Shown here: piece after piece, positions 21,958 through 36,798 of the stretch
Layout: each line of letters begins with the position of its first letter
Numbering within the stretch: position 1 is the first letter of the stretch
Origin: a virus
Taxonomy: Duplodnaviria; Heunggongvirae; Uroviricota; Caudoviricetes
Length of the DNA: 48,556 nucleotides
IMG/VR virus record: IMGVR_UViG_2706794697_000013
Reading direction: 5' to 3' (one strand)
Made by a program: the position numbers and the translations under genes
The notes under the pieces: model-generated
Database searches by the model: none
What the model saw: only the letters and a program-made list of their open reading frames with translations
What the model was told of the DNA's origin: nothing

Positions 21958-23268
21958 TTAAATCCGAAGTGATGTGACTCTTCCGGTCGGTTTGACAATA
22001 GGGAATTGCTTAACGATGAAATAACCTCCGGCATCATTCGGGTGATCATTGCCAGATTTTTTATCAGGCTCCCCCTTCTCATCCCAGACCTGTTGCTCCA
22101 GAGATTCGGCATATAACGGGCAACGCTTCACATTAACTTTATAGCGACGCTCACCATTGGCATTGCAGAACATTGCATTCATTGAGTTAACGCGATCTTT
22201 TACTGGCGGGTTCGAGCTGTTCACCACAACGTTAAAACCAGCCTGCTTAAGCTGGGCTATATCCGTCGTACTTGCGTTACTTGATTTTCTGGAATCCCCG
22301 GAAGCATCTGGATAAATATAAATTTCCCTCACTTTCCGGTAATCATTCCCATCATACAGCCAGAAGCGTTCTTTAATGATGCGGATCATATCCGGCGTAT
22401 CGTAGGCATTGATGATTTCAGTTACCGCACATGGAAGCCCCAAACGCAGCACATGGACGATTCCCGCCATCTTTCCAACGTTAAAATCCATCCCAATATA
22501 AATCGGCTCCCCTGGCTGCTCCACTTCTTCGCAATTATTCAGTTTCCGGTCAAACTGATGGTAAACAGTACCACTTGTCAGGTTAGTAAACTGTCCTCGA
22601 AGATAGGCTTTAATCAGCTCTGGAGGGTATGATTCAAGAAGCGAAGGAATGTAATCTGCTGGCAGGTTCTTTTCATTATCGAAAGTAGATGCCTGCACCA
22701 GACCATACAGTGAGGCCAGCTCTGTTTTTTCACGCACGGCTTTAACAAACTGCTCGTAGACAAATTTGAATCCTTCCGGCGTGGTTGTAACGTCAATACC
22801 GTTGCGAAGTCCATCAATCTTATAACGCATACGTGCAATTATCTTGCGCCACGCCGTTCTGGCTTTTTCCTTCGGCAAAATGTCCAGTTCATCCACCAAC
22901 GCATTACCAATTTTGAAACCGACGATCGTTTGTGGCTTCTCCATCGATCTGCAGATAGTGGTTCCCCGATACTGGCGTCCGTAATAAAAGTGAACCTCTT
23001 TATTTCCCTCATTAATTTTTACGTTCAATCCCCAGTCAGCAGCAACTTCTTCCACTGTAGGGTAAAAAATATCGCGAATTTGGGGATACGTTGGCGCAAA
23101 ATATCCCTGATTTATACCTGGATGCTCCCAAATCCCCTTGCATATGCCGCCACACCCAACCCATGTTTTGCCCGAGCCAAAACCAGCAATATAGGCTTTA
23201 AATTTATGGGGCATTGAAAGAAATCGCGCCTGAGGCACATTAAGCGTCGGAGAGATCATCTTCATCAC
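21958..23268 (-). CDS. Terminase large subunit
   Basis: 436 aa with Walker A-like AGFGSGKT near the N-terminus and acidic nuclease-like C-terminus; not lambda A-like. Confidence 0.8.
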   Translation of the reverse strand: MMKMISPTLNVPQARFLSMPHKFKAYIAGFGSGKTWVGCGGICKGIWEHPGINQGYFAPTYPQIRDIFYPTVEEVAADWGLNVKINEGNKEVHFYYGRQYRGTTICRSMEKPQTIVGFKIGNALVDELDILPKEKARTAWRKIIARMRYKIDGLRNGIDVTTTPEGFKFVYEQFVKAVREKTELASLYGLVQASTFDNEKNLPADYIPSLLESYPPELIKAYLRGQFTNLTSGTVYHQFDRKLNNCEEVEQPGEPIYIGMDFNVGKMAGIVHVLRLGLPCAVTEIINAYDTPDMIRIIKERFWLYDGNDYRKVREIYIYPDASGDSRKSSNASTTDIAQLKQAGFNVVVNSSNPPVKDRVNSMNAMFCNANGERRYKVNVKRCPLYAESLEQQVWDEKGEPDKKSGNDHPNDAGGYFIVKQFPIVKPTGRVTSLRI

Positions 23269-24334
23269 TCCTTACTCTGGCATCAACCACATTAATATTG
23301 ATCGCCACAGGCTGGGGATGTTCATTATCTTCCACCGTTTCGATCTCTTTGCGCAGCTTCTGGTTTTCCATTCTGCGCCGTTCAATTTCCAGTTCCCGTA
23401 GCCGCTTATCTGCACATAAAGCCCCGCCAGCAGAAAACAAACGCAACAATTCACGCCGGGCGGCAGCCTTATCCTCCAGCAGGATCTCAACGCCGAATTT
23501 TCCGAATTTTGCCCCTGCATATAATTGCCGCGCATCCCCATCAAGCAGAGTGGTATCAGCCATATAAAGCTGTCCCGTTCCCTCACCGCAGCACTTCGGG
23601 CAGTCCGGATTGGGTATGGCGTTATCAACAAAGCCGAGGCCTCCATATTCCGGTTCGGGTTTGCCATCTCTGGAAGCCTGCGCCGCTGCCTTGTCGAATT
23701 CTGCTATATCGCGCCACTGGTAGAGATGATTCTCGCCCCAGCAATAACGGCAGTTAACACGGCGAAATTGTGCAAGCTGATTGGGGTCGGCCAGGACAAT
23801 AGCCATCAACTGACTCACTAGTAAATCCAGGTCTGCGGTATAGCGTTTCTGGTACTGATTGCGGAAGTAGCTGATAGCGCGAAAAACCCTGGCATTTCTA
23901 AGCATACGACTGGCGTTGCTGTTAGCTGTCGCACCTTGCCCCTCATAACCGGCTAGTCGGTACGCCTCTGTCGGCTTTTTACCCTGAGCAACAAGCATCG
24001 CAAACTTAGCCTGCTGGTCAGAAATGCCGAATTCATCGGGACAGAACGAAAATTCCTCCGCGTCGCCCTCATTCAGGCCCGCATCGAATACTGGCTTTTT
24101 TTCCTGAGATTTTTCGTTCCGCTTTTGTGCAGTCTGCGCAGATTTTTTCTGCGCACTTTTTTGCGCAGTTTTGCACATTTCTGTCTGCGCATTTTTCGGA
24201 GTTTTTTTGATGTAACGACGGGCTGTTGCGTAATTCAGTCCCCTTGCTTCACACCATGCCACCGGAGATATACCGGAGCGGGTGTATTCAGCAATATACT
24301 CCTGCTGCAACGCCCCCCAGTCCGGTCTGCTCAT
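23240..24334 (-). CDS. Terminase small subunit (N-terminal HTH, internal Terminase_2-like motif)
   Basis: 364 aa; N-terminal HTH-like stretch; internal AYRLAGYEGQGATANSNASRMLRNARV resembles small-terminase signatures; overlaps the large subunit start. Confidence 0.6.
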   Translation of the reverse strand: MSRPDWGALQQEYIAEYTRSGISPVAWCEARGLNYATARRYIKKTPKNAQTEMCKTAQKSAQKKSAQTAQKRNEKSQEKKPVFDAGLNEGDAEEFSFCPDEFGISDQQAKFAMLVAQGKKPTEAYRLAGYEGQGATANSNASRMLRNARVFRAISYFRNQYQKRYTADLDLLVSQLMAIVLADPNQLAQFRRVNCRYCWGENHLYQWRDIAEFDKAAAQASRDGKPEPEYGGLGFVDNAIPNPDCPKCCGEGTGQLYMADTTLLDGDARQLYAGAKFGKFGVEILLEDKAAARRELLRLFSAGGALCADKRLRELEIERRRMENQKLRKEIETVEDNEHPQPVAININVVDARVRSDEDDLSDA

Positions 24335-24337
24335 CAG

Positions 24338-24589
24338 TTAGTCCTGATTTTTATCCACCCTGAGTAGTTCGCGCAGAGCAAAGGCATCCCCTTTTCTGGC
24401 AAGCTTAAACAATGCCGCTCGTAACTCGGCTTCACCTTTCGCTCTGCCCTTACGGATGGCCGCATAAAAATCTGTCATTGCTTCCCGATTTTCTTTCAGT
24501 CGGTTCAGATCAACATCCAGAACGTCAGCGATTTGTTGTGCAGTCATCCGGCACGCTGCCAGAGACTCGACTTTCGAATACGGAATCAT
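24338..24589 (-). CDS. Hypothetical small protein upstream of terminase
   Basis: 83 aa ORF; function not recognised. Confidence 0.35.
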   Translation of the reverse strand: MIPYSKVESLAACRMTAQQIADVLDVDLNRLKENREAMTDFYAAIRKGRAKGEAELRAALFKLARKGDAFALRELLRVDKNQD

Positions 24590-25475
24590 TTGTCACCCCC
24601 ATTGATATGCAGGGTGTCTTCTTCCTGTATTTTTCGTGAAGGATTTTTACTGCAGCGTTGTTCCAGGTGACCTGATGGTGAATGCGTTTATGACTGGCAC
24701 CCATAAGTGAGATTTTTACGCACGACGGCGCATACATGACGGAGTAAAAACTTTTAACGTAGGTTCCGGAATCCAGATACAGCTCGGTCATTCCGCCGCT
24801 GTTTTTCTGCGTCTGTTTCTGCCCTAACTGGACAGCACCGATCGTCATAAACAATTCACCACAGCGACCGAGATTCGTGTACGTATTCACATCCTCGTTA
24901 ATGCGCCCCATGAATGAGAACGGTCGATCAACCGAACAGATAAAGCTGTTCATTGCCTTGCGTTTCACCCACGAAGCATGGCCGCCATTGTCACCAAGAA
25001 AATCCCCGCCCTGCGACATAGCGATGGAAAGAGCAGGTATTGATTCGTAGTACGCAAGCATTTCAGAAAGGATCTCATCCAGTTTCCTTATCGGGAAATA
25101 GGCCTGGTCATAGTTGCGATCCACCCGAAACTGGAACTCGTGATAATCATCATCGAGCTGAATGAAGTATTTACACCCGACCAGTTTTGCCTGGTCGAAA
25201 CAGGCATTACGGGCGTAAAAAATTGAGCGGCGGTCACTAAAATTATCGGCTTCGTCAAAACGACTAGCAATATCGGCTTTGGAAAATACCAGCACCTGTT
25301 CACCAAATTCAGCCATGTACTGATGCCGTGTCTTATCTTCATCATCAACAACGATAAAAATTTTCCCGGTATAGCCAGCACGACGCAACGTCCGGTAAGT
25401 CAGAACTTTGTCCGGTCGCCCGTGAGTCAGAATAAAGGCGCAAAAATCATCACGCATATTCCTCCTCCCCGCCAT
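24525..25475 (-). CDS. Hypothetical protein with acidic DxD-like motifs
   Basis: 316 aa ORF with IFIVVDDED and YFIQLDDDY; overlaps the end of the ParB-like gene; family not recognised. Confidence 0.45.
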   Translation of the reverse strand: MAGRRNMRDDFCAFILTHGRPDKVLTYRTLRRAGYTGKIFIVVDDEDKTRHQYMAEFGEQVLVFSKADIASRFDEADNFSDRRSIFYARNACFDQAKLVGCKYFIQLDDDYHEFQFRVDRNYDQAYFPIRKLDEILSEMLAYYESIPALSIAMSQGGDFLGDNGGHASWVKRKAMNSFICSVDRPFSFMGRINEDVNTYTNLGRCGELFMTIGAVQLGQKQTQKNSGGMTELYLDSGTYVKSFYSVMYAPSCVKISLMGASHKRIHHQVTWNNAAVKILHEKYRKKTPCISMGVTNDSVFESRVSGSVPDDCTTNR

Positions 25476-26238
25476 GCATGATCTCCACCATGCGCTGCGT
25501 CATTCGGACAAATCCATTTTCAATAGCCTGCTGATAATCAATGATCACCAGCGCCGACTCCTCGAAAAGGCACTGAATTTCAGCGGGGGCATGAGCGTAA
25601 TAGTCCGCAATTCTGCTGAAATTAAACACCGTGTGACGTTCTGCTGCACACAGGAGGAATTTCTCAATATCAGGATCAAGGGACGCCGAACGTATCCGGC
25701 TGATCAGCTCCTGAGTTTTCGTATCGTCGTACAGTTCACTGATATCCGGTTTACCGCCTGACGGCTCATAAACAGGCGTATCAATTTTCGTCGTATACGG
25801 CTCCTCCTCATTTCCTGTACCGGGCAAAACATCCGTCAACAGTTCATCAATTTCTGCCGGGATGAAGCCTGTCAGGGAGACATCAAAATCAGCATTGATT
25901 AGGTCCGACAGCTCCATCCGCAACAGATCTTCATCCCAGCCAGCATTCATCGGCAGGCGATTATCTGCCAGGCGGTACGCCTTTTTCTGCTCATCCGTCA
26001 GGCCAGACAGAACAATGACCGGAACAGAATCCATTTTGAGCATTTCAGCCGCCATAACACGACCGTGACCCGCAATAATTTCGCCCTTTTCGTCAATCAG
26101 CACCGGATTAGTCCAGCCGAATTGCTTAATACTTTCTACCAGTTGTGCCACCTGCTCAGTACTGTGCGTCCTGGCGTTGTGCGCATACGGTGACAATTCT
26201 TGTAATGGGCGATAGACTATCTTTAATTTCTCGCTCAT
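25450..26238 (-). CDS. ParB-like nuclease domain protein
   Basis: 262 aa; N-terminal region carries a ParB/Srx-type motif (..GHGRVMAAEML..). Confidence 0.6.
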   Translation of the reverse strand: MSEKLKIVYRPLQELSPYAHNARTHSTEQVAQLVESIKQFGWTNPVLIDEKGEIIAGHGRVMAAEMLKMDSVPVIVLSGLTDEQKKAYRLADNRLPMNAGWDEDLLRMELSDLINADFDVSLTGFIPAEIDELLTDVLPGTGNEEEPYTTKIDTPVYEPSGGKPDISELYDDTKTQELISRIRSASLDPDIEKFLLCAAERHTVFNFSRIADYYAHAPAEIQCLFEESALVIIDYQQAIENGFVRMTQRMVEIMHGGEEEYA

Positions 26239-26375
26239 ACAGCCTTGCTTTATGAATAAAACGCACCCCAGCAGCCAGTGCTACTGGGGGCGGAGGTGTT
26301 GCTGGTAAAGTTAGGTATTGGATCAATGAGTGAGTCAACATAATATTAAACTCACAATTATAAATCAGCCATATA

Positions 26376-27833
26376 TTAGGAGCGCCAAAAAAAACCTGAA
26401 AACAATATAATAACAGGATAAATTTCAAGGCGACCAAGAATCATAGCTATGCACATTAAATATTTTGCAATGTCATTAAGCACTCCGAATGACGATGCAG
26501 TAGCCCCAAAACCTAATCCCATATTATTAATACATGCAGCCACTGTTGCAAATGATGTAAGAAAATCATATCCCATACCATTTAACACCAGTATAAAAAA
26601 CACCGTGAAGAGAGTATAAAGAAAAAAGAAACTCCATACAGACCTCATTACACGATCTGTAACTATCTTCCCTCCTACATTTACACTCAACAACGCTCTG
26701 GGATGAGAAAGCTGATTTATCTCGTGTTTGCTTTGTTTGAAAAGTATAAGAAATCGAAGTGACTTAATTCCACCACAGGTTGAACCTATACATCCCCCAA
26801 AGAAACTTGACAACAGCAAAAACACTATCGTGTGCGTGGGCCAGTTTGCATAATCCTGCGTAGCTAAACCATTATCAGTGAGCATGGAGCTGGCAAGAAA
26901 AAACGAATGAATAAAACTTCCATGCAAGTCATACATACCTATATGCCAGACCTGGAAAGAGGTAACAATGATCACCCCTAAGGCTATTAACAGAAAGAAA
27001 CGAAGTTCAATATCTCTGATTAAAGGTTTTATCGTTTTTCTGCTAATAACAATATACCAAAGAGTGAAGTTGAAAGCCGATAGCAGGGAAAAAGAACCAG
27101 CCACCAGCTCAACCAAATAGTTATTAAAATATCCGATACTCTCGCTATGAGTTGAGAAACCACCAAGCGAAACTGTGGAAATCCCGTGACAAATAGCATC
27201 AAACAAAGGCATTCCTGCAAGTCTATAACAGACAATACAAGCAATACCTAATAAAGAATAAGTTATCCACAGTGTCCGTGACGTATCGGCCAGGCGGGGA
27301 GTGAGTTTGTCATCCTTAAATGGCCCCGGCATTTCTGACTGATAAAGCTTTGCACCACCAATACCCAATAATGGCAATACTGCAACCGCCAGAACAATAA
27401 CTCCTAAACCACCTATAAAATTTAACTGTGACCGATAGTACAAATATGCCCGAGGTAATGAACTAACATCATCAATTACAGTTGCTCCTGTTGTTGTTAT
27501 TCCAGAAACCCCTTCAAACAGAGCATCAATGAACGTTAAATTAAGTTCTGAGTCAATCCATAAAGGGAATGCACTAATAACAGAAAACAAAATCCAAAAC
27601 ATTACAATTATAATAAACCCATCACGGGTACGTAATTGAATGCCAGATTTCTTAGTTGTATACCACGCTCCGCCACCAATGCAAAAAAATATAACGAAAG
27701 TTATAAAGAAAACGAACAGGCTTTTTTCTTTATAAAACAATGCTACAACCATTGGTGGCAACATTGAAAGACTATAGAGCCAAACCAGGAACCCACACAT
27801 ATGAGTAACAACTCTTACATGAGATGTATTCAT
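26376..27833 (-). CDS. trkG: Trk-system potassium uptake protein TrkG
   Basis: 485 aa polytopic membrane protein from MNTSHVRVVTHMCGFLVWLYSL.., recognised as K-12 Rac TrkG; gene is visibly AT-rich. Confidence 0.85.
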   Translation of the reverse strand: MNTSHVRVVTHMCGFLVWLYSLSMLPPMVVALFYKEKSLFVFFITFVIFFCIGGGAWYTTKKSGIQLRTRDGFIIIVMFWILFSVISAFPLWIDSELNLTFIDALFEGVSGITTTGATVIDDVSSLPRAYLYYRSQLNFIGGLGVIVLAVAVLPLLGIGGAKLYQSEMPGPFKDDKLTPRLADTSRTLWITYSLLGIACIVCYRLAGMPLFDAICHGISTVSLGGFSTHSESIGYFNNYLVELVAGSFSLLSAFNFTLWYIVISRKTIKPLIRDIELRFFLLIALGVIIVTSFQVWHIGMYDLHGSFIHSFFLASSMLTDNGLATQDYANWPTHTIVFLLLSSFFGGCIGSTCGGIKSLRFLILFKQSKHEINQLSHPRALLSVNVGGKIVTDRVMRSVWSFFFLYTLFTVFFILVLNGMGYDFLTSFATVAACINNMGLGFGATASSFGVLNDIAKYLMCIAMILGRLEIYPVIILFSGFFWRS

Positions 27834-27970
27834 ATCTAAATATTCTTTCAATTATAACCACCTTGCTGCAATATTATGATTATACTGTATAAAATTTAAC
27901 TCCTCTTAGATCTTACTTCACTGTTCCTTATGAAACAATCATCAAAATGAATCATATTGTAGTTAAGATT

Positions 27971-29395: not shown

Positions 29396-29791
29396 CTAAC
29401 CTCGCATGTCAAAGCCAGATTTCTGAAAATCTCTGTAGACTTCCGGATTGTTGAAGGCCGGAAATTTGGCTTTATGAGCTGCGGACTTTATCGCTTCGCA
29501 ATAGGCTTTATCACCGTTACTGGTAGATATTTTTAACGCCGTGCCATCCTGAGAGAATTCCATATGCAACCTGCATTTTTTCCCTTTCCAGTTATGCGGC
29601 TCATCAAGTTTGGCATTAATTGCAGCTCTGATTCCCCGCGCTTGCGCCCCCCATTCATCCTGATCATCCCAGCGTCCTGAACTGCAACTACCTGTAGCAG
29701 TAGTTTTGTGGCAATCTGAAGGGTGTAAAGGTGTGCATCCCGCAACAAAACCGACCCAAAAAGTCAACATAACGATTTTCTTTAATCCCAC
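29396..29791 (-). CDS. Lipoprotein with TolA C-terminal (domain III)-like domain, copy 2
   Basis: Probable GTG start with GAGGAG RBS; lipobox VAGC; C-terminal ..KKCRLHMEFSQDGTALKISTSNGDKAYCEAIKSAAHKAKFPAF..PEVYRDF.. resembles TolA domain III as recalled. Confidence 0.65.
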   Translation of the reverse strand: MGLKKIVMLTFWVGFVAGCTPLHPSDCHKTTATGSCSSGRWDDQDEWGAQARGIRAAINAKLDEPHNWKGKKCRLHMEFSQDGTALKISTSNGDKAYCEAIKSAAHKAKFPAFNNPEVYRDFQKSGFDMRG

Positions 29792-29941
29792 TTCTTGCTC
29801 CTCAATCCATTAAAATCTCAGCAATAGTAGTTGTTACGTCCGCCACTGGCTCAGAGCTGACTATCCGCTAAATTTAGCTCAGTGCCGTAGCTGTGTCAGA
29901 ACAAACCTAAGCCGAAACCGTTTATTACAAAACAATAAATA

Positions 29942-30370
29942 TCAGGGTTTAAAATCCAGCACCCCATTTTGAAATACTTTATATACTTCCGGCGAAGGGG
30001 GGGCAGGTATATCAGCATTCTTTATCGCATTCATCGCTTCACGACATAAATCGAGGTCTCCACTTTCTCTTTTAACCTCCAGTAGAAGGCCATTCGGGGC
30101 CATATGCATTCTCAGTGTACACTCTTTTCCTGAATACTTACTCGCATCCCCGAACTGTTTTTCGATGGCGCTCTTGATTTGATGGGCATACAGACGGATA
30201 TCCTCACTAACATCAGAAGTACGTTCAGATGAACTCACATACTGTGTCTCTATTGCTTTATCGGAGTAATATGATGTACGGTCATGATAATTTGTCGATA
30301 CAGCATCAGTGCACCCGATAATAATCCCACTAATAATCAACGTAAGAATTGATGCGCTACGAAAACCCAT
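29942..30370 (-). CDS. Lipoprotein with TolA C-terminal (domain III)-like domain, copy 1
   Basis: ATG with GAGGAAAA RBS; lipobox IIGC; C-terminus YAHQIKSAIEKQFGDASKYSGKECTLRMHMAPNGLLLEVKRESGDLDLCREAMNAIKNADIPAPPSPEVYKVFQNGVLDFKP closely follows the E. coli TolA C-terminus as recalled. Confidence 0.75.
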   Translation of the reverse strand: MGFRSASILTLIISGIIIGCTDAVSTNYHDRTSYYSDKAIETQYVSSSERTSDVSEDIRLYAHQIKSAIEKQFGDASKYSGKECTLRMHMAPNGLLLEVKRESGDLDLCREAMNAIKNADIPAPPSPEVYKVFQNGVLDFKP

Positions 30371-34620: not shown

Positions 34621-35622
34621 TTAGTAATCTGCGTGTTTCGCACTTTTCAGAAATGCTTTCATATTTTCATTAGGTCGCTCAATTTCGAAGTTACTTCCAT
34701 ATAACTCTTGTAATTTTGGCCATAACTTACTTAATAACCCTCTCCTGCGATAAAATGGATGTATCCAAACGGTAGATAGGTACGGAGAATTTGCATTTGA
34801 ATTGTTTATTGTGACCAGCCCAACTAAACATTGTCGATAACCACTATTATCCATTGATTGTATTTCTTCGACGAATGGATACGCGATTACATCAGTCCAA
34901 CCATGATCGGTTGTATCCCATTGCATTCCGTCATGACATTCCTTCGACTGATAGCGGCGTAAAGCTACACACGCGAGCTTTTGCCAATCTGGAGAATTAA
35001 TTGTGATCTCTTCATCGTATGACGCGCCTATTGGAGCGGGTATTGGTCTGATTAATCCAGCATGGCATTCATCATAGAACTTCATGTTTCCCTCAGAAAC
35101 GTTGTGTACGTTGGGTTGCTCCATGTGTGCGCCATTCAAAAATAGCTCTGATAGTAGTGTATCTACACTGTAATCTTTATTGATTATTGTCGGCTTAGAG
35201 TTTTTCTTATTAAGGCCGCGAGTAACGATTTTTTGATCAATGTTAACAACATGGAATAATCCGTCGGGGAGGCTAGCGAACCACGATGGGGCATCGGACC
35301 AGAATAGCATGCCTTTTGTACTTCTTAAGAGTTTAATTAAGTTAATACAAGCTTCTTCACTAGTCTTGCCGTTGATGCGAAGTATGTTAGGACTAAAGTA
35401 ATATTCATCCATATCAGGGAATGCAGCTTCGCAAAACTCCTGTACATAATTTAGCACCTGGATTCTACAGAGATCATCATAGCTGGTAATAACTAAGGGG
35501 GTATCTTCATTACTATTATGATTATCAATAATGCAATCTATAGCGAGACTTACTGCTTTGCGTATCACTTCAGTTGAATCTAACGACTCTAAAAATTTTG
35601 TCTTTCGTGTGCGAATATCCAT
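34621..35622 (-). CDS. Hypothetical protein B (333 aa) with GNAT-like C-terminal motif; second gene of AT-rich cassette
   Basis: ATG at 35622, 15 nt after protein A stop; C-terminal ..LSTVWIHPFYRRRGLLSKLWPKLQELYG.. resembles GNAT motif A; AT-rich. Confidence 0.6.
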   Translation of the reverse strand: MDIRTRKTKFLESLDSTEVIRKAVSLAIDCIIDNHNSNEDTPLVITSYDDLCRIQVLNYVQEFCEAAFPDMDEYYFSPNILRINGKTSEEACINLIKLLRSTKGMLFWSDAPSWFASLPDGLFHVVNIDQKIVTRGLNKKNSKPTIINKDYSVDTLLSELFLNGAHMEQPNVHNVSEGNMKFYDECHAGLIRPIPAPIGASYDEEITINSPDWQKLACVALRRYQSKECHDGMQWDTTDHGWTDVIAYPFVEEIQSMDNSGYRQCLVGLVTINNSNANSPYLSTVWIHPFYRRRGLLSKLWPKLQELYGSNFEIERPNENMKAFLKSAKHADY

Positions 35623-35637
35623 GTATGACCTGCGCTA

Positions 35638-36660
35638 TTAAAATTCATGAATGAACGGTTTGTCATCTGGTTGCAAAATGGTGGTTTTATTCGTTGCTAC
35701 ATTTAAACTGTTGTAGAGCATAATTGCCAGGTTCGATGCATTTTCAATCAGCGTTTCAAGATCCTGGTCTGTAATCACTACGAGGTTCCCTTCTTTATCC
35801 TTTCCACCACGATGCACTAAGTGATTTCGATTGAGGGTTGCCAATTCAATAGCTTCTATCGGACAGTCTTTTTGTACTTTTATATCGAATGTAGCTTCAT
35901 AGCGGTCGATTACCTTTTTAGTGCTATGCCAGCTTGCACTGATCAAGTGTTCCTTGATTGACCTGATTAGCTCTCCCCTAATTTTCTCGATGGGTTCACC
36001 CTTGAAAGGCAACGCAGCAATATCTTTGCTTACTTTAAATTCAGTCTTACCTTTTTCTATACAATTGGCTATGTAGACATCATCTTTCTCTATAGAATTA
36101 ATGAATAGCTCAACATAAAGCGTTTCCAAAGCTGTAATAACATTCGTGTAGAGCAAACTAAGCAAGTGGTTTTTTTGCTGTTGTTCAGTTTTATCTTTTG
36201 CAAGTTTTTTTATTTTATCGATATTATCAATGAATTTTAAATACGGATTACCGGAAGACGTTACAGCGTCGTAGATATCATCATCGTACCAATCATCTAT
36301 ATTATTTGAGTTTCCAGACCAGTCAAAACATTGTGTTTGTAATTCATCTACTAATTCCTCAATATACTCAGATTTAACATATTGACCGAAGATGGATTGT
36401 AGTTCTTCGCTCGCATCATACGGCCCGCCATATATGTAAGCATAGCCACCTTCTCTACTTTCATACGGACAAGCATTTGCCGGATCTTCAAAGTTTTCAA
36501 AGAACCAGTTTTTCATTACTTCGAGTTGATCTTTTTTGCTTATGTATTTTAAAGATTTTAGTGGAACTTTCTTTCCATTAACCTCGAAAACAATTTTCAC
36601 GATGTAACGCTCCCTTGTATCAATTGCGCAACTATTATACCACAGCGAAATACAGGGCAT
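35638..36660 (-). CDS. Hypothetical protein A (340 aa) with C-terminal HEPN-type Rx4H motif; first gene of AT-rich cassette
   Basis: GGAGG RBS 6 nt upstream of ATG at 36660 (ORF track extends 23 codons further); C-terminal ..ELATLNRNHLVHRGG.. fits R-x4-H; about 36 percent GC by hand count. Confidence 0.6.
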   Translation of the reverse strand: MPCISLWYNSCAIDTRERYIVKIVFEVNGKKVPLKSLKYISKKDQLEVMKNWFFENFEDPANACPYESREGGYAYIYGGPYDASEELQSIFGQYVKSEYIEELVDELQTQCFDWSGNSNNIDDWYDDDIYDAVTSSGNPYLKFIDNIDKIKKLAKDKTEQQQKNHLLSLLYTNVITALETLYVELFINSIEKDDVYIANCIEKGKTEFKVSKDIAALPFKGEPIEKIRGELIRSIKEHLISASWHSTKKVIDRYEATFDIKVQKDCPIEAIELATLNRNHLVHRGGKDKEGNLVVITDQDLETLIENASNLAIMLYNSLNVATNKTTILQPDDKPFIHEF

Positions 36661-36798
36661 AACCTGCCTCCTTAAACTAACATACCATGAGCCAGCAATG
36701 TCCGCTATTGGCACAAAGCGGACAACCACGCTAGCTCTCCCCTGTGCCAGAAAAATGTCAATTTACATATGAACTAATGCTCTTTGATCTAGTAACGT

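Follow-up and report, generated by a model that had tools for sequence, protein, structure and literature searches.

What do two overlapping genes do that stand just upstream of the terminase genes of an Escherichia coli prophage, one encoding a ParB-like protein of 262 amino acids (aa) and the other a protein whose longest open reading frame (ORF) runs to 316 aa? The question is raised by the IMG/VR virus record IMGVR_UViG_2706794697_000013, a stretch of 48,556 nucleotides (nt) that we call the window and that, as a whole, is an intact Rac-type lambdoid E. coli prophage; identical DNA in strain EC2 carries annotated recE/recT, kilR, sieB, ydaS-W, trkG and ynaK as well as head and tail genes. 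The original prediction, made from the letters alone, placed the overlapping pair ahead of the terminase genes and suspected a role in DNA modification, packaging initiation or anti-restriction. The arrangement is as it had described, on the minus strand and with an 83-aa ORF, TerS and TerL following the pair (Table 1), and the DNA-modification interpretation is both supported and sharpened by protein family, predicted fold, gene linkage and the reuse of one protein module elsewhere. With modest confidence, we propose that the two genes form a late-expressed, ParB-assisted two-component DNA glycosylation module. The protein families, ParB-assisted DNA modification and TAGT DNA glycosyltransferases were known already; the strict pairing of a ParB C-terminal domain with a TAGT enzyme in the absence of a precursor pathway was previously uncharacterized.

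The 316-aa protein, which the original prediction could not place in any family, is clearly a TAGT-family GT-A glycosyltransferase. It matches Pfam PF20691 (TAGT, TET-associated glycosyltransferase) with 118.8 bits against a cut-off of 27.5 (E 4.1e-34), over protein residues 14-228 and profile positions 4-205 of 205, and phrog_842 at 8e-104; newer records of the Prokaryotic Genome Annotation Pipeline (PGAP) name it 'GREB1-related protein'. Its AlphaFold2 (AF2) model is confident for residues 1-160 and weak past residue 223. Searched with Foldseek, the model retrieves GT-A folds from the PDB (SpsA, glycogenin, ColGalT1 and SunS/ThuS) and viral TAGT models at E 1.6e-19, so that the nucleotide-sugar-transferase-like character suspected earlier is borne out by profile and predicted fold alike. 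A profile search against PDB sequences returned nothing meaningful, only a chance match to T4 gp54 (E 0.94), and the glycosyltransferase is therefore without a solved homologue; NCBIfam held no useful family for it or for the ParB-like protein. A serotype-converting Gtr-type glycosyltransferase was considered and rejected, as a membrane or flippase partner is lacking and the gene is not located where such an enzyme would be expected.

Across 17 homologues, with identity down to 59%, residues R20, D44, D47, D108-D110 and E194-D195 are invariant. Both acidic motifs that had first drawn attention, IFIVVDDED (residues 39-47) and YFIQLDDDY (residues 103-111), are present and conserved; the former comes after strand 2 of the confidently modelled Rossmann-like core, and the latter holds what we take to be the catalytic DxD. 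Together, R20, D108-D110 and E194-D195 correspond to the R...DDD...ED signature of phage DNA GT-A enzymes, a motif found in experimentally active members of that group and in the trypanosome enzyme JGT (bioRxiv 10.1101/2023.12.21.572611). Conservation extends beyond the Pfam model into a C-terminal region whose RIHH..W motif occurs in the partner-linked TAGTs examined and is absent from three TAGTs that have no C-domain partner; in so small a sample this is suggestive only of an interface with the partner. The E. coli enzyme also has a tail of about 25 residues that is absent in other homologues.

The upstream partner belongs to the ParB/Srx N-terminal domain family by profile match and by fold, in keeping with the N-terminal motif noticed at the outset: the 262-aa protein passes Pfam ParB_N (PF02195; 29.3 bits against a cut-off of 26.3, E 8.7e-7) and matches phrog_620 at 1.7e-90. 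PGAP names the gene ynaK, and the protein is the full-length form of the truncated YnaK of K-12. In the AF2 model, the nucleotide-binding domain is followed by a helix pair (residues 103-134), a disordered linker (residues 136-165; predicted local distance difference test score below 50 for residues 136-158) and a helical C-terminal domain (C-domain). We refer to the domain and helix pair as the N-module, and to the conserved linker motif and C-domain as the C-module. G57, G59 and R60 of the box II-like motif are invariant and H58 nearly so; set against GERR, the sequence GHGR retains the phosphate-binding arginine, while the first arginine has become glycine and the glutamate of CTP hydrolysis has become histidine. 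The C-domain carries the signature FL..AAxRH..IAxYYA..Q.L.E.SALVIID, conserved at 80% or more across 78 partners, and a fold search with residues 166-255 gave no significant match. The idea that this domain might be a hidden oxygenase was rejected, the domain being all-helical and without a recognizable di-iron or 2-oxoglutarate motif. Literature searches on ynaK, and on Lactobacillus phage c5/LL-Ku with ParB, turned up no functional study.

That these proteins work together is indicated by their linkage, which holds from either side. One genome per GTDB species was scanned with an alignment of the glycosyltransferase, and the resulting 80 TAGT loci, at 40-60% identity, are spread over Proteobacteria, Bacteroidota, Firmicutes, Veillonella, Planctomycetes, Verrucomicrobia, Saccharibacteria and some archaeal metagenome-assembled genomes. 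A homologue of the ParB-like protein lies directly upstream on the same strand in 78 of the 80, usually overlapping the TAGT start, and the two loci with no detected partner are loci without upstream DNA. Conversely, when viral contigs were scanned with an alignment of the ParB-like protein, a TAGT gene was found downstream in every one of the 33 viral loci whose ParB carries the C-domain, with one extra gene lying in between in five. The two genes are an obligate pair and constitute one unit. In at least seven loci (L012, L026, L032, L033, L057, L075 and L077), the linker motif and C-domain occur alone upstream of TAGT as an ORF of about 135 aa that starts at the Y148 linker motif; these loci lie in replication modules, among PolA, beta-clamp and primase-helicase genes. 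The conservation of the C-module, its constant linkage to TAGT and its stand-alone forms therefore identify it as the glycosyltransferase-specific part of the ParB-like protein.

Fusions of ParB to TAGT were not found in these surveys, the longer TAGT proteins being fusions to other domains. In P0263, P0246, P0254, P0268, P0295, P0298, P0288, P0265 and P0273, which are close relatives, the fusion partners are SAM-methyltransferase-like (N- or C-terminal), P-loop-kinase-like, sulfotransferase-like or a second glycosyltransferase, assignments made by reading the sequences and not by family search. The genes inserted between ParB and TAGT encode a fusion of a histidine phosphatase and a cytidylyltransferase-like domain in three of the five cases, a second TAGT in one, and in the fifth (L113) a protein that was not identified. 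The bifunctional inserts (L107 2942-3895, L109 1419-2387 and L110 5770-6729) resemble ribazole phosphatase/PGM in one half and TagD/RfaE domain II in the other, which suggests a custom nucleotide-activated donor in some variants. A second, divergent TAGT adjoins the ParB-C-domain/TAGT pair at L032 (2970-3845) and L117 (1689-2540), implying sequential sugar addition in some phages. One phage with the pair also has four GT2-family glycosyltransferase genes in a row directly behind the capsid gene (L082 17837-20316 / L083 8659-11138), which may serve virion or surface glycosylation.

If the C-module is dedicated to the glycosyltransferase, the N-module is not. Alone (residues 1 to about 140) and at 50-65% identity, it occurs in 46 viral loci. 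In 26 proteins it is fused or adjacent to N6_N4 DNA methyltransferases, and stand-alone N-module proteins of about 190 aa lie directly upstream of Mom-family genes (PF25680) in six cases by Pfam count, five of which were confirmed individually (L120, L121, L135, L146 and L158). The N-domains of these Mom-associated ParBs are 50-60% identical to that of the YnaK type, and we found no description of a ParB-Mom pairing in the literature searched. The module also stands upstream of a divergent TAGT at L130 and of PAPS-reductase/DndC-like genes, and genome locus L031 encodes a SAM-methyltransferase-ParB-C-domain fusion. By analogy, the ParB N-module appears to be a generic DNA-modification adaptor that gives access to double-stranded DNA (dsDNA).

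The analogy rests on phage ParB-like proteins that activate thymine dioxygenases, an activation that is cognate-specific and needed on dsDNA only (O'Toole et al., PNAS 2026, PMC13229309). These activators lack a DNA-binding domain; what they contain is a nucleotide-binding domain, a short helical stretch, a linker of some 50 aa that is disordered, and a C-terminal domain. The commonest neighbours in 5mYOX clusters are glycosyltransferases, ParBs and terminases (PMC13229309). Judged by the AF2 model, the protein studied here has the architecture of ParB176 and, like it, is encoded beside its cognate DNA-modifying enzyme; the partner of ParB176, 5mYOX176, is a dioxygenase, whereas here it is a glycosyltransferase and no dioxygenase was found. 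The likeness to ParB176 is one of architecture, and activation would thus be carried over by analogy. Fusions of ParB to N6/N4 DNA methyltransferases share the prophage niche and, at 50-65% identity, the N-terminal 135-145 residues, but in these proteins catalysis is fused, whereas we propose that here a separate, coupled glycosyltransferase is recruited via a dedicated C-domain. A survey of the ParB-CTPase fold describes methylase fusions in prophages and makes no mention of glycosyltransferases or of YnaK (PMC12704722).

Partition proteins such as Spo0J, Noc and KorB also share the ParB/Srx CTPase-type fold and the box II arginine. Beyond these features the resemblance ends: the 262-aa protein reaches only 38.1 bits against a cut-off of 58.45 for the partition family TIGR00180, and through its N-domain only; its model contains no helix-turn-helix (HTH) DNA-binding domain; GERR has given way to GHGR; and the C-domain has no detectable similarity to the ParB dimerization domain. 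The annotated prophage has no parA gene, and a scan of the genes and their surroundings brought out no parS-like repeats; a single repeat family was present, inside terS. There, four clustered copies of a 21-mer resembling TTTTTCTGCGCA occur in the 5' part of the gene (24110-24200), with a fifth at 24802-24822; the copies fall where terS codes for SAQKK/AQK repeats and could be a pac-site candidate or just repetitive coding sequence.

The position of the pair is conserved as well. Most related loci show ParB-TAGT-TerS-TerL-portal in this order, with a TerS-like protein and then TerL encoded by the two nearest genes downstream on the same strand; in Lactobacillus phage c5, whose genome is complete, the cos site is followed directly by the pair as ORF1-ORF2. 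So constant a place just upstream of TerS and TerL could be taken to mean that the ParB-like protein is a packaging accessory, recognizing pac or cos or helping terminase as a nuclease in the manner of HNH, and that the glycosyltransferase is an unrelated passenger; database names, the sole origin of the label 'ParB-like nuclease' for the 262-aa protein, point the same way. We give this explanation little chance. What the ParB-like protein is linked to is TAGT and not one terminase family, since at least four TerL Pfam families occur downstream (Terminase_6N in 21 loci, Terminase_3 in 18, GpA in 4 and TerL_ATPase in 3, plus a T7-type), and the C-module-only variants stand in replication modules without a terminase. 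The lack of an HTH domain in the model and of parS-like repeats at the genes also speaks against it, and phage c5 already has HNH endonucleases beside its cos site.

The junction of the two genes points to coordinated synthesis. As listed, the ORFs overlap by 26 nt; in the homologues and in PGAP, however, the glycosyltransferase begins at Met7 (ATG 25457-25455), which is preceded by a GGAGG run (Shine-Dalgarno) within GGGGAGGAGG and overlaps the ParB stop as ATGCGTGA. The glycosyltransferase is therefore probably 310 aa long, a refinement of the originally predicted length, and coupled to the upstream gene, with a true overlap that is probably 8 nt; overlaps of 4-40 nt are found in most of the 80 and 33 related loci. 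Ahead of the pair lie a trkG transporter gene and a lysis cassette (holin-lysozyme-Rz), and a strong terminator-like hairpin between trkG and the ParB start implies that the pair should be transcribed only by the antiterminated late transcript. A promoter scan gave nothing better than did shuffled sequence.

From these elements the proposed module would work as follows. The 310/316-aa GT-A enzyme would catalyse metal-dependent sugar transfer from a nucleotide-sugar donor, and the 262-aa protein would be its obligate adaptor or activator. Within the latter, the ParB/Srx domain and helix pair would act as the generic part through which DNA-modifying enzymes reach dsDNA, while the linker motif and helical C-domain would be specific to this glycosyltransferase and probably dock onto it. 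Through translational coupling, both proteins would be produced at the same time, just before terminase, from the antiterminated late transcript. Glycosylation of the phage genome would follow once it has been replicated, ahead of packaging or in the course of it, and would most plausibly serve to blunt host restriction or other nucleic-acid-targeting defences. We infer DNA as the acceptor, the physical interaction of the two proteins, the timing of expression and the protective role from the features above.

Several points weigh against this proposal. Characterized TAGTs use 5-hydroxymethylcytosine (5hmC), or a sugar that it bears, as their acceptor (PMC13216743; bioRxiv 10.1101/2023.12.21.572611). 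5-Hydroxymethyluracil (5hmU) and sugars on it also count among the canonical acceptors of the family, and the linkage to TET/JBP or another source of a 5-hydroxymethyl-pyrimidine that would be expected of such an enzyme was not found. The window contains no recognized TET/JBP, thymidylate-synthase homologue or DNA methylase; no hydroxymethyl-pyrimidine source appears in the lists of the most frequent families flanking the pair at the 80 loci; two further contigs have none within 10 kb; and the complete 31.8-kb genome of phage c5, whose hypothetical proteins are all smaller than 210 aa, has none annotated. The upstream neighbours of the pair at the 80 loci are heterogeneous (SSB, RusA, VRR-NUC, PolA and a few methylases). 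Moreover, mutation of NTP-binding residues in a characterized ParB activator left its function in place, so that the mode of action of the ParB domain is not clear-cut even in the precedent (PMC13229309), and the AF2 models are weak for the C-terminus of the glycosyltransferase and for the ParB C-domain. The T2/T6 enzyme is also too distant in sequence for retrieval by tblastn, and human GREB1, which contains a TAGT domain, O-GlcNAcylates a protein (PMC7968844). Orphans of this kind have been noted in published surveys: about 65% of GT-A/GT-B contigs lack 5mYOX or ThyS and were left unexplained (bioRxiv 10.1101/2023.12.21.572611), and solitary TAGTs of undefined function were reported in 288 of 753 TAGT-bearing phages (PMC13216743).

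One way to accommodate the missing precursor is that the sugar is placed directly on an unmodified DNA constituent, be it the nitrogen of a canonical base or some other site for which hydroxymethylation is not a prerequisite. By opening or clamping dsDNA, the ParB-like partner would expose the acceptor. We regard this as possible, if doubtful. If true, it would represent an undescribed DNA chemistry that between about a sixth and a quarter of the sequenced E. coli strains carry, as do phages of many phyla, including an archaeal virus.

A different solution is that the acceptor is made outside the module, and that the enzyme extends or decorates hydroxymethyl-pyrimidines, or sugars on them, like the second-sugar transferase of T2/T6; in E. 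coli it would be idle or act on foreign DNA, for instance that of T-even phages. The name that RefSeq and PHROG 842 give the family, 'beta-glucosyl-HMC-alpha-glucosyltransferase', agrees with this, as do the use of 5hmC or glucosyl-5hmC by characterized TAGTs and the second TAGT at L032 and L117, which fits sequential sugars. The T2/T6 enzyme and 5mYOX-associated GT-A enzymes do share PF20691, the GT-A fold, R...DDD...ED and a phage origin with the protein described here. However, the window holds no alpha- or beta-glucosyltransferase, dCMP hydroxymethylase, C5-methylase or TET/JBP partner that would place it with the T-even systems, and this subfamily is set apart by its obligate ParB-C-domain partner and the RIHH..W motif. 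A tblastn search of 50,697 phage records with the glycosyltransferase (E <= 1e-3) retrieved no T-even phage, the top myovirus match being 23% identical (Aeromonas phage 65); the cultured phages in which it located the module infect Lactobacillus delbrueckii, L. gasseri, Nocardia and Vibrio, in addition to Haloarcula virus HHTV-2. At such a distance from T-even phages the database name should not be transferred.

JGT, the base J glucosyltransferase of trypanosomes, is a GT-A DNA glycosyltransferase and is reported to be the cellular enzyme nearest in structure to the TAGT-type enzymes of phages (bioRxiv 10.1101/2023.12.21.572611), but it acts on 5hmU made by JBP1/2, and no such hydroxylase was found here. 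That the two genes form a unit across phyla, with no linked precursor enzyme in more than 110 loci or in c5, argues for a self-sufficient system, and the place in the late operon behind a terminator argues against expression in the lysogen. E. coli itself is not known to make 5hmC or 5hmU. A base supplied from outside is thus, in our view, distinctly unlikely.

The same lack of a visible source of hydroxylated base in the window or in phage c5 could instead mean that the enzyme modifies a protein and not DNA, be it the partner through the Tyr/Thr residues of its linker motif, a packaging or virion protein, or a host factor. The linker might even be self-primed in the manner of glycogenin, with the ParB-like protein as substrate or targeting subunit. 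Apart from the GREB1 precedent, the closest solved folds include glycogenin and the peptide S-glycosyltransferases SunS and ThuS, the partner's disordered linker harbours a strictly conserved Y-x2-K-x3-P-x-Y motif, and a place next to structural genes would fit modification of a virion protein. Against a protein acceptor, the partners of the N-module elsewhere (methylases, Mom and, according to the literature, 5mYOX) are all modifiers of DNA bases, the C-module-only variants lie among DNA polymerase, clamp and primase genes and not among structural genes, and other close relatives of the TAGT carry, as fusion partners, what read as SAM-methyltransferase-like and P-loop-kinase-like domains, which DNA hypermodification clusters typically contain. 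On balance, we consider a protein acceptor unlikely.

Finally, the genes might be functionless remnants decaying in a cryptic prophage. Rac is cryptic in K-12 MG1655, where an 87-aa ynaK stub is joined to ydaY and the glycosyltransferase, terminase and head genes are deleted; only 867 of the 1,580 matching E. coli genomes cover the pair to at least 80%; and PGAP marks ynaK as a pseudogene in some records. We find this scarcely credible, since in the window both ORFs and the head, tail, lysis and terminase genes are intact, and catalytic and motif residues are invariant across phyla. With more than 7,700 homologues of each protein and pair DNA in 1,580 of 5,426 complete E. coli genomes, the ORFs are not chance either, and the pair is also present in ten phage records of induced prophages. 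In NZ_CP058571.1, PGAP calls ynaK a 258-nt pseudogene 'missing C-terminus' (L001 21644-21901, equal to about 25981-26238 of the window), even though this DNA matches the intact 262-aa ORF of the window at 100% identity and some 520 nt of coding sequence are left unannotated; the call looks like an artefact of modelling on the truncated 87-aa YnaK of K-12 and therefore does not speak for decay.

Returning to the ParB-assisted DNA glycosylation module that we favour, its interest lies in placing an orphan TAGT in a tractable setting, an intact Rac-type E. coli prophage for which K-12 is a natural null. The orphan is half of a strict two-gene unit, the other half being a dedicated ParB adaptor. 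TAGT-type glycosyltransferases and ParB-like activators are each established components of phage DNA hypermodification, and the characterized cases all start from 5-hydroxymethyl-pyrimidines. The pair could bring to light an unrecorded modification of DNA or an acceptor not seen before, which would matter for the evasion of restriction and anti-phage defence, for artefacts in the sequencing of E. coli phage DNA and for enzymes with which to label DNA. It would also broaden a view now emerging, in which the ParB fold serves DNA-modifying enzymes in general (methylases, Mom, dioxygenases and glycosyltransferases) as a means of access.

Table 1. Positions of the features discussed (window coordinates unless a locus is named).
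Feature	Position	Strand	Basis or remark
ParB-like protein, full-length YnaK type, 262 aa	25450..26238	-	ORF list, Pfam ParB_N, phrog_620, PGAP name ynaK
ParB/Srx nucleotide-binding domain and helix pair, residues 1-134	25837..26238	-	common to ParB-methylase fusions and Mom-associated ParBs
Box II-like motif G57-H-G-R60	26059..26070	-	hidden Markov model alignment to GERR of Noc 7nfu
Linker motif Y148-x2-K-x3-P-x-Y-x-P...P164	25747..25797	-	conserved at least 80% in 78 partners, many phyla
Helical C-terminal domain, residues 166-255	25474..25743	-	TAGT-specific partner module; AF2 helices
Translational-coupling junction: GGGGAGGAGG, then Met7 ATG overlapping ParB stop as ATGCGTGA	25450..25470	-	read from sequence
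TAGT-family GT-A glycosyltransferase, longest ORF 316 aa (310 aa from probable start 25457)	24525..25475	-	PF20691, phrog_842, fold
First acidic motif V43-D-D-E-D47	25335..25349	-	D44, D47 invariant
Predicted catalytic DxD motif D108-D109-D110	25146..25154	-	invariant in 17 homologues
E194-D195	24891-24896	-	invariant
Conserved C-terminal region beyond Pfam model, TQ..GGMTELY..GTYVKSFY..PSC..H-x-R-I-H-H..W	24663..24812	-	invariant columns 222-271
TerS-like ORF, 83 aa	24338..24589	-	directly downstream of pair
Small terminase subunit TerS	23240..24334	-	after 83-aa ORF
Large terminase subunit TerL	21958..23268	-	after TerS
Terminator-like hairpin, ten-pair stem with seven G-C pairs, then T-run	26266..26289	-	between trkG moron and ParB start
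trkG moron, TrkH family, GC 0.385	26376-27851	-	between lysis cassette and late packaging genes
Mom-family genes	L120 5462-6100; L121 5483-6097; L135 5452-6153; L146 4535-5260; L158 2984-3718		E 1e-40 to 1e-46

Elsewhere in the prophage, two further regions of the minus strand attracted our attention. A low-GC island (0.36-0.40) at 34621-36729, between the DUF1971 and DUF977 genes of the early region, contains a 333-aa ORF with a weak GNAT match (E 9e-4) and a 363-aa ORF with a weak match to a HEPN/RES N-terminal domain (E 2e-4); the island could be defence or moron cargo. At 29396-30370, at higher coordinates than the lysis cassette and hence transcriptionally upstream of it, two adjacent ORFs of 131 aa and 142 aa, annotated elsewhere as TolA C-terminal-domain proteins, are likely to be further prophage cargo.

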